From a virus: a stretch of DNA of 64,000 bases. The notes beneath the pieces are model-generated. The model was not told the DNA's origin. It worked only from the letters and a program-made list of their open reading frames with translations, and made no database searches. The stretch lies in IMG/VR virus record IMGVR_UViG_3300027805_000008, positions 1 through 64,000 of that record; one strand, given 5' to 3'. Both the position numbers and the translations under genes were made by a program. Within the stretch, counting starts at the first letter, position 1; every line of letters begins with the position of its first letter. Positions 37,017-43,307 of the stretch are shown here, in pieces.

Positions 37017-40000
37017 ATGGCTGACGAAACAATCAGTACCAAGATAGTCGCTAATGCCGACTTCTCATCCCTTATTGCCGATGTGCATAAGGTTACCGCC
37101 AGCCTATCAAAATTACAAGAACAATTAGCTAACTCTAATAAGATGATGGCAAATCAAATTGCTGTCATGAACAGATCATTTGCAGACACACTAAGAAGTA
37201 CAGGACAATTCTCCACACACTTTGTAAGCCTACAATCAGATGTAGAAAAATTTGGTAAAAATCTAGATGGCGGAAAACTAAAGTTAAATCAATATTTTAA
37301 TACTTTTAGGGATCATGCTAGAACATCTGGCGGACTTATAAGAGAATTAGCAAAGCAACAAGTAGCCCTTCAGAACTCAGTATTACAACCGCTAGGCAGA
37401 AACGCACAAGGACTTATGCAGTTCAATGTGCATGTTCCAAGAGGGCTAGATGAAGTAAAAAATAAAACAGCAATAGTAAGACAAGAATTGCAAATTATGA
37501 ATAAGGTTATTCAGGATGGTGCTGGACAACTTATTAATTGGGGTAAAAATACTCAGTGGGCAGGCCGTCAGTTAACAGTCGGTTTAACCGTACCACTTGT
37601 AGCCTTTGGAGCACAAGCTGCAAAAGCATTTAGAGAAGCAGATCAAGAGTTAGTTCGTTTAACTAAGGTTTACGGAGATGTTGCAGGAACATCAGCAGCA
37701 GAATTAGGTAGAGTTAGACAAGAAGTTACTTCTACTGCAAAAGAAATTTCTGCAGCGATGGGTGTTTCATTTAAAGAAACTATTGGTCTTGCAGCAGATA
37801 TTGCGGCTACTGGTAAAACTGGAGATGAGTTACTAGGGTCAATTAAAGAGACCACAAGACTTGCAGTACTTGGAGAAGTAGACAGACAAGAAGCTATGAA
37901 GGCCACACTTGCAATTCAGTCAGCATTTAAGCAAAATACAGATCAACTTTCAGAGTCTATTAACTTCCTTAACGCAGTTGAAAACCAAACTTCAACTACT
38001 CTAAATGACCTTGTAGAAGCAATTCCAAAAGCTGGTCCAGTAATTCAAGGTTTGGGAGGAAGCGTACAAGACTTAGCGCTTTACCTTACAGCTATGCGTG
38101 AAGGCGGAATTAACGCATCAGAAGGAGCTAACGCATTAAAGTCAGCTCTCGCATCTTTAATTAACCCAACAGATGTTGCTGTAGGAAAGTTTCAATCATT
38201 AGGAATAGATCTTTTAGGAATAGTAAATAACAATGCTGGTAATTTAACTGGAACATTAATGGAATTACAAGGGGCTCTAGATAACCTAGATCCACTTCAA
38301 AAACAACAAGCAATCGAGCAGCTATTTGGAAAATTTCAGTTTTCAAGACTAAATGCTTTATTTGAAAATTTAGGTAGACAGGGAAGTCAAACGCTTCAGG
38401 TTTTAGATTTAATGAAGGCTTCTACTGGGGAATTAGCAACTGTAGCAGATCGAGAATTAGCAGCAGTAACCGAGTCGGCTTCTGGTAAGTATCGCAGGGC
38501 AATAGAAAGCTTAAGAGCATCTTTAGCTACAGTAGGAGAACAATTCCTTCAAATTAATACGGTTCTTATTCAGGTTATTGATAAGATTGTACAGTTTGCT
38601 AATAATTTGCCAGGCCCAGTAAAACAAATACTTGCATTAGCTGGAGGATTTACAGCAATCATAGGTCCAGTAATTATGTTAACTGGTGTACTTGCTAACT
38701 TCTTTGGGTATTTGTTAAAGGGCGCATTCCATATGAAGGCATTCTTTAAGGGTGGCGAAGGATGGAAATATTTAACTCCAGAAATGTTAGCAGCAGAAAA
38801 AGCTGGCAGGCTAGTTGAGCAATCATTTTACGATGACGCAAAAGCTGCAGCTGTACTACAGCAAGCGCTTAGAAATTTATTAGATGAATTTGCTATTCTA
38901 GAACAAAAAGCTAAAATAGGGTCAATGTCAATAAATCCAGCAGTATCAACAATGGCTGGAAGCATGATAGTGGGCGGACAGAGAGTGGTTAATCCCTCAC
39001 ACCCACTTGCGGGAGAACAGGGAACAAGAGCAAGTTCTCACATGGTTCCAAGAGCTGGTATGACGGAAGCTCAAAGACTGCAACAAACAATGTTTGGAAT
39101 GGTTCCAGGATCAATCCCAGTAAATCAGAAAATTGGTCAGAACCCACAAATTTATATGAACGAACCTCTTCCAAATGTTCCTGGACTTACAACGGTTAAT
39201 GGGGTATCTACAGGCATTGTTTCTGGAGAAGCTGCAAGATGGCATGCAATGATGGCTACACTTGGAATGCAGTCAAAGGCGGAAATTGAAACTTTAAAGA
39301 AAACAATTGTGGCTACTGGAACTGTAAGCAAAGAATTTATGATGCAGTTTGATGATATTCTTCCTGTTGTTTCAAGACTTACAGATAATGCAGCAAGAGA
39401 ATCTGCAATGATTGTCGCAGAACTTCGTGCAGGAAAAATGACTGTAGAAGCTGCTAGGGCAAAAATTGTAGCTCTTAATTTGCAAACAGAACAAATGATT
39501 GCTTCTTCTGTTCAATCACAAGCACTGGCTATGGGCAGAACAATTAATCCAACAATGGTTCCAACATTAAATCAACCAGTAGTTGATGCTACTGGAAAAT
39601 CAAATATGAGAGAGTTGTTTAAAAAGGGTAAAACAAGAGATTTCATTAATCGTATTGCTGGAGTATTGGGTGTAAGAACATCAGGTGCTGGGTACAATGT
39701 TGAAACCACAATTCCTAAAAAATTTAATAGAGGAAATATAGTTCCAGGATCTGGAAATACAGATACAGTTCCAGCAATGCTTACACCTGGAGAGTTTGTT
39801 GTTAATAAGCAAGCAACTCAGCAAAATAGGCCATTACTAGAAGCAATCAACAATAGTACATTGGGTGGGCAAGCAACTCCTGGAAGATCAAATTACGGTC
39901 CAATTAATCCAGGACTAATGGCAAATGTCTCAAGGCTATACACAAGGACTGGAAATTTTGCACGTAGGTGGTTCTGGGATACAAGCACTGGATCAAGTCT

Positions 40001-43000
40001 TTCTGGGCAGAGAGACTCACTTGTCAGATCAATAAGAAAAAGACCAATACTAAATAAGAGCGGTGTTCCTTATTCTGAAGCAGAATTAAGAAAAGCTCCT
40101 AAAGAAGAAATTCAAGCATTATGGGCTAACTATGATAGAGGACATGTAGCTCCACACAGGTCTATAGGCGGAACAGATAACTACTTTGCCCCAGGAATAT
40201 TAATGCCTATGTTTAGAGGATCCAATAGGTCAATGATCTCTGCAGGAGATCCAATAGCAATTGCAAAAAGTTTAGAAAATCAATCAATTCATCCAACAGT
40301 ATTTTTAGATGAAGCAGCCGAAGCATTTGGTTATGTTGCTGGTTCAAAAACAGATGCAGCTTATGAAGCATTGATAAAAGGATTATATAAGAGAGGTGCT
40401 AAGAAATTTGATCCTAGATCAGGTGATTCATTTGAAAAGTTTGCGTTTGAAACAATATCTCCGTTTTTACAAAATATTAAAAATAGCTCTGGGGCAAATC
40501 TATTAGATGATCTTTCAAGAATTGGAACAGTAAGAGGAACTCAGGCAAATAGATCTTCTGGTGGACGTTCTGGAACTGGTTCAATAGCACCGTTTGCCGT
40601 AGCAGATGACTATTTCACACTAAACATGAATACTGGCGGAATGGTTCCATCACCAAATGGACAAAAGTATAATATGGGCGGAATGGTTCAGGGTTACAAT
40701 AGAGGCGGAATGGTAGCTGGACTACTTGGAGCTTCAGCAGTCGGTCTTGGCGGACAGATGCTAGGAAATGCAGTAGGCGGAGGACTTGGGTCAGCTATTA
40801 CAATGGGCTCCTATCTTGCAAGTAGTATGATAGGATTTGGTGGAATGGGTGGTAGAGGAGATCAAAAGGGTCCAGGTTTTGTTGGAAGACAAATGCAAAA
40901 AATTGATCCACAAGGTAATTTAACTAAGCCAATTGGACCATTAAATAACTTATCTGATGCAACTAAAAAGCTCTCAGGAAATCTGGGTGGGGTAAGCAGA
41001 ATGTTTGGCCCATTATTAAGAGGCTTCACAACTTTACTAAGACTAACAAGCCCGCTTGGAATAGCAATTACTGGAGTAACTGCTGCAATTGGATTTTTTG
41101 TAAAGGCTCAAAAAGAAAAAGCAAAAGCTTTAGAAACAGGTAGACAAGCATTCGGTATGGATGCTGCTGCTGCAGAAAAAGCAGGATTCAAATATACAGA
41201 TTATAACGCTAAAATAAAGGTAGCAATTGAAGATGCTAAGGCATTAAAAGAAAGAAATATGATGATTTACGAAAGCATGACAAAGGCTAACGTTCCAATC
41301 AACATGACAATTGAACAATACAAAAAGCTTAAAGAACAAGTAAAGTCAACAATGGGAAGTTACATAGACCTATTTGATCAAACAGATAGAAAAGATGTTG
41401 GCAATGTTGCTGTTCAGTTAAAGGCACAATTTATGGCAGCTGGAGATTCTGCAGAGGTTGCTACTGCTAAAATATTTACAATGATTAAGCAGTCTGAAAA
41501 TGCTAATATGGCTGCGTCAGCAATTAGCTCTAATGCCTTCCAAAGCATTCAAAATATGGAACAGGCTTCTGCTCAAACAGTAAAAACATTTGAAGCAGCA
41601 ATGAAAACTGGAGATGCTGAATCGCAAGCCAGGGCTTTGCACAGCACATTTATGGCAATGGATGCTACTCTAGAAGAAACCATTAGAAAGCAAAAAGAGC
41701 TAGGGGATTCAGGAAAAGCTAATGCAGAGCAGGTCGGCAGTGCAATAGAACAGAAGCTTGCAAGTATTAATAAGTCTTTTGGCACTCAGGCAAACCTATC
41801 AAAAGATGTTATTAGTGAACTAGGTAAAACAGATCCTCTATTAGCGGAGATGTTAAATAGCACAGATACTCTTTCTAGTGCATGGGCTAAATACAGATTA
41901 ATTCTTCAGGGTGCTGCTACCGATCTTGAGAATATGACTGGAGAAGCAGCAATCGCTGCGCTTTCTTTAAATGAAATAGTGAAGGCTCAAGTTCAACTAA
42001 ACCCAGCTGTTGCTGCTGCAAATAAATCATATGCTGGTATGACTGCTAGAATTAAAGAACTTGAAAAGGCACAAAGAGGCCAGTCTGTTAAAGCTCAATA
42101 TAATGCTAAAGAAGAATCAGCTAGACTGCAAAAACAAATTGCAGAAATTAAAAAGGCTGCTCAAGAAAAAATTGATGGAATTCGCAAAGCAACTGAAGCA
42201 GAAAATACTCAGCTAGAAATTCAAAAAGCTCAACTAAGAGCTCAGCAAATGTTGATCCAGGGCAATATGTCTGGATACGCTGAAGAGCAAATGACAATTG
42301 AGCAGTTAATGAATGAGGCTAATCGTAAAGATGCAGAAGAAGCAATTATCGCTAAGGCAGAAATTGATATTAAGCCTCTTCAGGATGCACTTGATGCTAT
42401 AGCAGACAAGAATGACAAAGCTGCAAAGAAGGCGGCACTTGCAGGAGAGAGCTTATCAGATCTTAGAACCAAGGCAAGCGATTACAATACTAAGCTTCAG
42501 GAGTATACACAAAATCTAAACACTACAATGTTTAAGTATTTGACAGACATTAACTTTAAAAATACTCCAGAGTATGAAGCAGCAATAAAAGCCTTAGACA
42601 ATCTTGGCCAAAAGCTAGGAATTAAAACTCCAGCGAAGGATGTTGTTTCAGAAATTACTAACGCATTAAAAAATGGAATTAACGCAGAAAACGTAACTCT
42701 TTATGCCGAAAAGGTTCAAGAAGGACAAAGAAGAGACTACACTAATAATTTAAAAAATATGACAGAAACCATTAAAAGGGGAGGCGGAGACGTAACAAAA
42801 ATTTATGATCCAAATACTCAAGAATTAACTCCACAAGCTAGAAGCGCTCTTATTAAGGGAGATGAGTTAATGCCTGGTGATACATTTACAGATAGTCAGG
42901 GAAGACCGTATAAGGTAACTAGAAAATTTGGTCCTGGACATGGAGCAGAATCAACAGGAGACCGAACTGTAAAAACAACACCGTCAATGTCGGCAAAAAG

Positions 43001-43307
43001 ATTTTTGGGTGGAAGAGTTGTGCCAGGAATTCCTTATACAATTAATGATGGTAAGAAAACAGAGGGGGTAGTGTTTGATTATCCAGGAATGATTAAACCA
43101 AATATTGAAACAGCCTTTAATATTCCTAATGGAACTAAATATAACGGAATGGGCGGATCTACTACTTCAAATAGCAGTAACGTATATAATATAGAGATTG
43201 CTCTAAACGGAACAAACGTCACAGCAGATGATGTTATAAACAGAATGAAACGAGAGATGGCTTTGATTAATGCTAAAGAAGGAATAAGTAGAAGGGTTGG
43301 TGCATAA
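37017..43307 (+). CDS. tape measure protein (TP901-type core) with inserted domain
   Basis: 2096 aa; GRQLTVGLTVPL; DTVPAMLTPGEFVV; helical Ala/Gly-rich. Confidence 0.9.
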   Translation: MADETISTKIVANADFSSLIADVHKVTASLSKLQEQLANSNKMMANQIAVMNRSFADTLRSTGQFSTHFVSLQSDVEKFGKNLDGGKLKLNQYFNTFRDHARTSGGLIRELAKQQVALQNSVLQPLGRNAQGLMQFNVHVPRGLDEVKNKTAIVRQELQIMNKVIQDGAGQLINWGKNTQWAGRQLTVGLTVPLVAFGAQAAKAFREADQELVRLTKVYGDVAGTSAAELGRVRQEVTSTAKEISAAMGVSFKETIGLAADIAATGKTGDELLGSIKETTRLAVLGEVDRQEAMKATLAIQSAFKQNTDQLSESINFLNAVENQTSTTLNDLVEAIPKAGPVIQGLGGSVQDLALYLTAMREGGINASEGANALKSALASLINPTDVAVGKFQSLGIDLLGIVNNNAGNLTGTLMELQGALDNLDPLQKQQAIEQLFGKFQFSRLNALFENLGRQGSQTLQVLDLMKASTGELATVADRELAAVTESASGKYRRAIESLRASLATVGEQFLQINTVLIQVIDKIVQFANNLPGPVKQILALAGGFTAIIGPVIMLTGVLANFFGYLLKGAFHMKAFFKGGEGWKYLTPEMLAAEKAGRLVEQSFYDDAKAAAVLQQALRNLLDEFAILEQKAKIGSMSINPAVSTMAGSMIVGGQRVVNPSHPLAGEQGTRASSHMVPRAGMTEAQRLQQTMFGMVPGSIPVNQKIGQNPQIYMNEPLPNVPGLTTVNGVSTGIVSGEAARWHAMMATLGMQSKAEIETLKKTIVATGTVSKEFMMQFDDILPVVSRLTDNAARESAMIVAELRAGKMTVEAARAKIVALNLQTEQMIASSVQSQALAMGRTINPTMVPTLNQPVVDATGKSNMRELFKKGKTRDFINRIAGVLGVRTSGAGYNVETTIPKKFNRGNIVPGSGNTDTVPAMLTPGEFVVNKQATQQNRPLLEAINNSTLGGQATPGRSNYGPINPGLMANVSRLYTRTGNFARRWFWDTSTGSSLSGQRDSLVRSIRKRPILNKSGVPYSEAELRKAPKEEIQALWANYDRGHVAPHRSIGGTDNYFAPGILMPMFRGSNRSMISAGDPIAIAKSLENQSIHPTVFLDEAAEAFGYVAGSKTDAAYEALIKGLYKRGAKKFDPRSGDSFEKFAFETISPFLQNIKNSSGANLLDDLSRIGTVRGTQANRSSGGRSGTGSIAPFAVADDYFTLNMNTGGMVPSPNGQKYNMGGMVQGYNRGGMVAGLLGASAVGLGGQMLGNAVGGGLGSAITMGSYLASSMIGFGGMGGRGDQKGPGFVGRQMQKIDPQGNLTKPIGPLNNLSDATKKLSGNLGGVSRMFGPLLRGFTTLLRLTSPLGIAITGVTAAIGFFVKAQKEKAKALETGRQAFGMDAAAAEKAGFKYTDYNAKIKVAIEDAKALKERNMMIYESMTKANVPINMTIEQYKKLKEQVKSTMGSYIDLFDQTDRKDVGNVAVQLKAQFMAAGDSAEVATAKIFTMIKQSENANMAASAISSNAFQSIQNMEQASAQTVKTFEAAMKTGDAESQARALHSTFMAMDATLEETIRKQKELGDSGKANAEQVGSAIEQKLASINKSFGTQANLSKDVISELGKTDPLLAEMLNSTDTLSSAWAKYRLILQGAATDLENMTGEAAIAALSLNEIVKAQVQLNPAVAAANKSYAGMTARIKELEKAQRGQSVKAQYNAKEESARLQKQIAEIKKAAQEKIDGIRKATEAENTQLEIQKAQLRAQQMLIQGNMSGYAEEQMTIEQLMNEANRKDAEEAIIAKAEIDIKPLQDALDAIADKNDKAAKKAALAGESLSDLRTKASDYNTKLQEYTQNLNTTMFKYLTDINFKNTPEYEAAIKALDNLGQKLGIKTPAKDVVSEITNALKNGINAENVTLYAEKVQEGQRRDYTNNLKNMTETIKRGGGDVTKIYDPNTQELTPQARSALIKGDELMPGDTFTDSQGRPYKVTRKFGPGHGAESTGDRTVKTTPSMSAKRFLGGRVVPGIPYTINDGKKTEGVVFDYPGMIKPNIETAFNIPNGTKYNGMGGSTTSNSSNVYNIEIALNGTNVTADDVINRMKREMALINAKEGISRRVGA

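Follow-up and report, generated by a model that had tools for sequence, protein, structure and literature searches.

The DNA analyzed here (the window) is a 64-kb stretch forming the first part of a 91-kb IMG/VR record (IMGVR_UViG_3300027805_000008, positions 1 to 64,000) from an uncultured freshwater phage with 38% G+C. It encodes a tape measure protein (TMP) in which a basic domain, here called module A, is flanked by conserved peptide motifs, referred to as the left and right fences. The conclusion that module A is a discrete, motif-bounded TMP cassette exchanged between relatives is well supported by sequence comparison, and we consider it probable that module A is one exchangeable cargo domain plugged into a fixed slot of the TMP. 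The features of the locus that bear on this interpretation are as follows; module B denotes a sister clade described below.

37017..43307, plus strand: TMP gene (P0001), 2096 residues, the largest open reading frame (ORF) of the tail module.
39723..39851, plus strand: left fence, the long conserved TMP motif FNRGNIVPGSGNTDTVPAMLTPGEFVVNK...LLEAIN, residues 903–945 (IMG/VR motif scan, PHROG profiles).
39882..40616, plus strand: module A, predicted basic globular domain, residues 956–1200, structured at about residues 973–1196 (AlphaFold2; swapped by relatives).
40134..40145, plus strand: DRGH, residues 1040–1043; R1041 and H1043 are invariant and D1040 and G1042 are not (alignments A1, A2 and A4).
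40224..40226, plus strand: N1070, 27 residues after H1043, invariant in modules A and B.
40290..40295, plus strand: H1092-P1093, "HP" at a helix start, invariant in module A; a single module B sequence has Asp in place of the His.
40425..40436, plus strand: D1137...E1140, within GDSFEKF; D182 and E185 in domain numbering, both invariant in alignment A2 and E185 also in A4.
40626..40715, plus strand: right fence, three xNxGGMV repeats, residues 1204–1233 (from the sequence; similarity to L013 and L021 resumes exactly here).

The ORF had been called a TMP in a first-pass annotation made from the letters of the sequence, and this assignment was borne out by a match to Pfam PF10145 (PhageMin_Tail; residues 240–438, E = 7e-31) and by matches of the same ORF to several PHROG TMP families (best E = 3e-120). 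Having both the profile match and the status of largest tail-module gene, it is a TMP of the TP901 type (PF10145). Its first ~600 residues are 33–36% identical to those of Streptomyces phage TMPs, and Gordonia phage TMPs match too, so an actinobacterial host fits. All of the elements that the first-pass annotation described (left motif, DRGH, three repeats and a FLGGRV near the C terminus) are present where it placed them and in frame with the ORF; only its start of the region, 39718, lies one base out of frame, harmlessly, as the codon begins at 39717. The insert was described as an Arg-rich globular segment of ~280 residues. It is Arg-rich (8.1% Arg, compared with 4.4% in the whole TMP) and is predicted to be globular, with a mean predicted local distance difference test score (pLDDT) of 75, but its size is about 235–245 residues. 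The further proposal that the insert is swappable agrees with what we found when relatives' TMPs were compared at the insert site, where variable, unrelated modules lie between conserved flanks.

The exchange is seen in several pairs of TMPs. P0002 and L038 are 86.7% identical over one flank (residues 1–976) and 80.4% identical over the other (residues 1213–2128), yet the parts in between are unrelated: P0002 carries the DRGH domain and L038 a module of ~290 residues, module F. The L013 TMP is 89% identical to the window TMP over residues 1–963, continues with ~370 residues of other modules, and resumes its similarity at window residue 1204, the first repeat of the right fence. The same pattern was observed in L021, L029 and L038, each with another module bounded by xNxGGxV. 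In P0017–P0019 the DRGH domain is kept, and a module of ~135 residues, module D (pI 10; residues ~1213–1352 in these proteins and L013:6862-7266), is added between further xNxGGMV repeats. Module D is common to L013, L014, L015 and L021, which differ in their first cassette, and is absent from the window TMP. The 4074-residue P0003 has four long and nine short motifs that fence a row of modules, the first of which is a DRGH-type domain with HRGH. In the lineage that shares the window's TMP scaffold, the slot holds at least five mutually unrelated module types; hhalign detected no link between modules A/B and modules C, D, E or F. The slot modules are all strongly basic (pI 9.9–10.6) and all free of Cys. 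Module A is thus an in-frame extra domain that relatives lack or replace, as in TMPs with embedded domains, and the relatives' TMPs contradict the idea that every TMP of the lineage has it in unvarying form.

The portion FNRGNIVPG...GEFVVN of the left fence spans residues 903–930 (39723–39806), and conservation extends to LLEAIN at residue 945. An IMG/VR scan that used just the left motif yielded more than 594 stretches, of which 560 were confirmed, and in several PHROG TMP profiles the motif corresponds to the C-terminal end. Its position varies, being about 100–200 residues before the C terminus in many TMPs and internal in others, as here. The right fence is made up of MNTGGMV (residue 1204), YNMGGMV (residue 1218) and YNRGGMV (residue 1227). 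The strict repeat pattern occurs three times in the TMP against 0.007 occurrences expected, a count that none of 5000 shuffles reached, and for DRGH the expectation is 0.0016 per shuffled TMP. Because the short motif recurs at every module border in related TMPs, we regard the fence motifs as beyond chance. The xNxGGxV repeats may be sites where the insert is released by proteolysis, along the lines of the first-pass annotation, or could equally be structural strands, since in clade B the repeat GG-x-I leads directly into the R-x-H strand described below. A role of the long motif as a recombination joint at the DNA level was considered and rejected: identity at third codon positions was 0.59–0.69 in the motif, no higher than the 0.48–0.61 found upstream. 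As synonymous sites are no more conserved in the long motif than upstream of it, the conservation is at the peptide level and does not reflect recent DNA exchange. The internal long motif of the window TMP is the one found near the C terminus of ordinary TMPs, and the protein as a whole resembles two TMP-like halves, each made up of a hydrophobic segment and a helical stretch and closed by a GG-x-V motif.

Across the TMPs with the long motif (L009–L087), 257 motif-bounded segments were grouped into 140 sequence clusters, and the DRGH domain was found in L009 only, among the 79 loci fetched by the left-motif scan. When 113 representative motif-bounded modules were searched against Pfam, only four kinds of domain were recognized, each in a single module: M23 peptidase, ADP-ribosyltransferase exoenzyme, HAD acid phosphatase and EF-hands. 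The M23, ADP-ribosyltransferase and HAD matches indicate that real enzymes do occupy such TMP slots.

Module A has a pI of 9.9 and no Cys. Its AlphaFold2 model (residues 956–1200), built with a shallow alignment of 19 homologs, has a predicted template modeling score of 0.73 and comprises ten helices and five short strands, being mostly helical with a small sheet; by this model module A is predicted to be an independent fold unit. The domain is rare. In a phmmer search of 1.84 billion representative proteins, only four clusters matched it, all of them TMPs or TMP fragments; one match of 1223 residues is the tail of a 2144-residue TMP (L009). A database clustered at 90% identity yielded 15 more close relatives, all TMPs of 2096–2286 residues. 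Searches of 50,697 phage records and 185,579 species genomes found no homolog, and a search of the ESM Atlas returned only unnamed viral clusters. No family of any kind in Pfam or NCBIfam, and hence no peptidoglycan hydrolase family, matches module A. No fold match was obtained with Foldseek against PDB and BFVD, or with VIA-align in its wide run and a second look, a kind of search for which a His-Me motif is too small to be detected or excluded. A resemblance to the ATP-cone was under the noise level of the tool and was put down to a four-helix arrangement of a generic kind.

The modules of L011, L029, L014 and L015 (module B) start with ...GG-x-I-x-[FL]-[EQ]-R-[GST]-H and are collinear with module A. 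An hhalign comparison of the two gave a probability of 95.6% (E = 1e-8) over the helical part, and we conclude from these alignments that modules A and B are homologous and make up one new family. In a MAFFT alignment, R-x-H, a Pro, an Asn, HP, a Gly and D..E align in both clades, and every A+B alignment keeps R86, H88, P109, N115, P138, G150 and E185 (domain numbering) unchanged. H1092-P1093 lies within the region that hhalign links between the two modules. YDRGH, part of YDRGHVAP (residues 1039–1046), coincides with predicted strand 84–88 in domain numbering, and LMPMFRGSNR, at residues 1062–1071, contains the conserved Asn, which follows the His by 27 residues in module A and by 38 in clade B. 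At the DRGH site the family consensus reads [DHQE]-R-[GST]-H; P0003 has His in place of the Asp, sister-clade members have Gln or Glu there, and other sequences have Ser or Thr instead of the Gly. Because D and G vary, the family signature is R-x-H, not DRGH. Similar tetrapeptides were seen elsewhere. Module F contains D-R-A-H (L038 residues ~1025–1035), though hhalign finds it unrelated to A/B, and [DQE]-R-[GSTA]-H also occurs in several other TMP modules (L019, L059 and L085), which may be coincidence or a recurrent theme.

Clade B also exists outside TMPs. A profile search uncovered free-standing versions (P0026–P0030) of 264–275 residues that lack a signal peptide, start a few residues ahead of the R-x-H strand, and are 52–58% identical to the copies embedded in TMPs of 2649–2756 residues. 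At L089:507-1310, on a metagenome contig with 40% G+C, lies a 267-residue free-standing homolog of the TMP-embedded sister domain, again without a signal peptide. Its neighbors encode DUF6421, a short-chain dehydrogenase (SDR), threonine aldolase, a DinB-like Y-family polymerase and a YggE-like protein; they recur in syntenic order on contigs of up to 116 kb, and the contig looks like part of a cellular chromosome. It occurs in freshwater, lake and other aquatic metagenomes of several studies, with no isolate. The free-standing homolog was found neither in IMG/VR nor in the 185,579 species genomes, and no obvious partner gene or inhibitor gene is evident beside it. The protein may be a host-encoded counterpart of the phage TMP module.

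The remaining features of the TMP are the following.

37734..38330, plus strand: PhageMin_Tail core, residues 240–438 (Pfam PF10145).
38619..38729, plus strand: hydrophobic segment, residues 535–571, a putative membrane hairpin (Kyte-Doolittle windows >1.4).
40719..40886, plus strand: glycine-zipper-like hydrophobic stretch, residues 1235–1290 (28% Gly across residues 1196–1300).
41034..41111, plus strand: second hydrophobic segment, residues 1340–1365 (hydropathy).
43002..43019, plus strand: FLGGRV, residues 1996–2001, a degenerate fence motif close to the C terminus (from the sequence).

The glycine-zipper-like stretch may insert into a membrane. Residues 1380–1960 form a long helical part that is acidic and rich in Lys. 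In the place equivalent to that of FLGGRV, P0002 has a complete long motif (residues 2003–2050). An SLT_3 lysozyme-like domain (E = 9e-13) is encoded by one of the 36 window ORFs that lie outside the tail block, indicating that the phage has a separate wall-degrading domain elsewhere than in the TMP.

The slot opens directly behind the strongly conserved ~45-residue TMP peptide at residues 903–945 and closes at xNxGGxV repeated two or three times, and further modules can fit between extra repeats. Taken as a cargo domain, module A would function in the following way. As part of the TMP, it would ride in the tail lumen and be expelled with the TMP at infection, and it would then act before the DNA, at the host membrane or immediately inside it, beside the glycine-zipper and transmembrane segments of the TMP. 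The R-x-H on a strand, the Asn 27–38 residues on, the HP turn and the D..E helix could together constitute a catalytic or metal/ligand-binding site. Since the free-standing sister protein lacks a signal peptide and resides in a cellular-looking genome, a cytoplasmic target seems likelier than the cell wall. Several points weigh against this interpretation. The fold of module A is that of one AlphaFold model from a shallow alignment, in which N1070 lies in a Gly-rich loop of low confidence (pLDDT about 52) just ahead of helix 119–132. The sister-clade model is poor (pLDDT 56) and shows the R-x-H region as disordered. The conserved polar residues of modules A and B could be structural, and the cellular look of the contig with the free-standing homolog has neighbor genes and synteny as its only basis.

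In an alternative, module A is non-catalytic. It could be a basic packing or spacer element of the tail lumen, or else an adaptor for binding a component of the host envelope or membrane or for helping the TMP channel to form; its polar residues would then serve in folding or binding. That the unrelated slot modules share only high positive charge and the absence of Cys points less to a common chemistry than to a physical constraint imposed by the lumen or membrane. Approximately 95% of the slot modules carry no enzyme signature, no fold or family match exists for module A, and the domain adjoins the glycine-zipper and transmembrane segments, all of which would be in agreement with a structural part. 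However, seven positions, R, H, N and E among them, stay invariant between two clades that share 20–30% identity, which is more like an active or ligand-binding site; the homolog outside any TMP argues that the domain has a function of its own; and recognized enzymes (M23, ADP-ribosyltransferase and HAD) sit in equivalent slots elsewhere. We therefore regard a non-catalytic role as the less likely explanation, though one to be taken seriously.

A more specific version of the cargo interpretation is that modules A and B represent a new enzyme fold whose R-x-H/N/HP/D..E site acts on a cytoplasmic substrate, possibly nucleic acid or a nucleotide, with the TMP delivering the domain ahead of the DNA and the host lineage keeping a free-standing counterpart. 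In this detailed form the proposal is speculative, and we think it unlikely to hold in every part. If it were true, and if the activity damages or nicks DNA, module A could feed the PafBC-type early promoters of the phage; this idea depends entirely on an unproven nuclease activity and is without support of its own.

The first-pass annotation had likened YDRGHVAP..LMPMFRGSNR to the active-site signature DRGH..P....N of NucA/EndA-type His-Me endonucleases, while noting that one usually conserved Asn is not evident. On that reading module A would be a highly divergent ββα-Me (His-Me finger) nuclease, with H1043 as general base and N1070 as Mg2+ ligand, that is injected with the TMP and cuts or nicks host nucleic acid. 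In favor of this reading, YDRGHVAP is present and both clades have R1041, H1043 and N1070 as invariant residues, though not the first and third residues of DRGH. The pattern Y-[FL]-x-x-[ILV]-x-P-[QM]-x4-N may also correspond to NYLSNITPQ...N of Serratia-type enzymes. As in Serratia nuclease, NucA, EndoG and EndA, the DRGH of module A ends a predicted strand, the Asn would lie ahead of a helix, and the surface is basic: the His closes predicted strand 84–88, which is followed by a hairpin (101–111) and the helix at 119–132. With the generic His-Me finger, too, the order of secondary structure in the module A model is compatible, whereas the sister-clade model is disordered there. At 27 residues, the His-Asn spacing comes near the 30–31 of Serratia nuclease, NucA and EndA (PMC3074123).

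The identification as a nuclease is nevertheless not supported by the profile, sequence and fold searches. None of the whole TMP, the domain and four excised motif segments matched PF01223 or another nuclease family at E ≤ 10, and the PF01223 hidden Markov model, run on the phage genome at the same threshold, detected nothing while control genomes responded. NCBIfam and PADLOC gave no match for module A. Phmmer and profile searches of PDB found no nuclease, the best matches being plant profilin and ribosomal L47, which were taken as chance. The model of the insert showed no match to a nuclease fold in PDB or BFVD. DRGH nucleases (Endonuclease_NS; PF01223, PF13930) share a central sheet, and the Asp, Arg and His of the motif are all needed in EndA (PMC3074123); the mostly helical model of module A does not show this sheet, and the essential Asp is His, Gln or Glu in homologs. 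Serratia nuclease and EndA have a catalytic Glu 8–14 residues after the Asn (E127 and E205, respectively). In the module A family no acidic residue of that stretch is conserved, position +8 being D or N and position +17 being E, N or Q. The pLDDT of 52 in the N1070 loop also counts against the nuclease reading. A free-standing sister clade with neither a signal peptide nor an evident inhibitor gene is a poor fit to a non-specific DNase, and no nuclease family was found by Pfam among the 113 other slot modules. Module A is therefore not demonstrably a DRGH or His-Me nuclease; we judge that identity improbable, a minority possibility for which the enzyme name should be dropped meanwhile, and the case is a caution that a four-residue motif is too little to name an enzyme.

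We return to module A as a probable exchangeable cargo domain to compare it with known systems. We found no paper on a motif-fenced TMP slot with many unrelated modules, nor on the module A/B family. The TMPs of mycobacteriophages contain embedded motifs related to host proteins, such as motif 3 of TM4 and the Rpf-like motif 1 (Piuri and Hatfull 2006, PMC1796659). As in those proteins (PMC1796659), module A is an in-frame accessory segment in the TMP of an actinobacterial siphovirus; it is dispensable for the ruler scaffold, since relatives lack it, and is related, by way of the sister clade, to an apparently non-phage protein. The mycobacteriophage motifs, however, are small peptidoglycan hydrolases, whereas module A has ~240 residues and no hydrolase signature; here, moreover, a peptide-fenced slot accommodates many unrelated modules, and the cellular-looking homolog lacks a signal peptide. 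TMPs have been known as carriers of cell-wall hydrolase motifs; the TMP described here would act as a carrier with a fenced slot for unrelated domains. Module A itself stands for a new and well-conserved family of domains that probably has an active site, matches no known fold and includes a homolog of cellular appearance; it is thus a target for expression and structure work.

The Sle1-type effectors of actinobacterial contractile injection systems are modular, TMP-related proteins with exchangeable functional domains on a TMP-like scaffold (PMC13277306). The window TMP is similar to Sle1 in having a variable domain that differs between relatives on such a scaffold, and the variable domain of Sle1 is ejected and membrane-associated (PMC13277306). 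Sle1 differs in being the cargo of a phage-tail-like particle with a C-terminal variable domain, whereas the slot described here is internal, fenced by motifs, and part of a genuine phage TMP. In polymorphic toxins a conserved part for delivery is followed by toxin domains that vary. The window TMP and its relatives likewise have a conserved N-terminal part that gives way to unrelated alternatives at a sharp junction peptide; unlike in polymorphic toxins, there is no immunity gene downstream, the variable part lies inside the protein ahead of a conserved C-terminal half, and module A is found in no other delivery system. If the slot domains do reach the host, siphoviruses would possess a virion-borne, fast-changing effector kit comparable to polymorphic toxins and to the cargo of injection systems.

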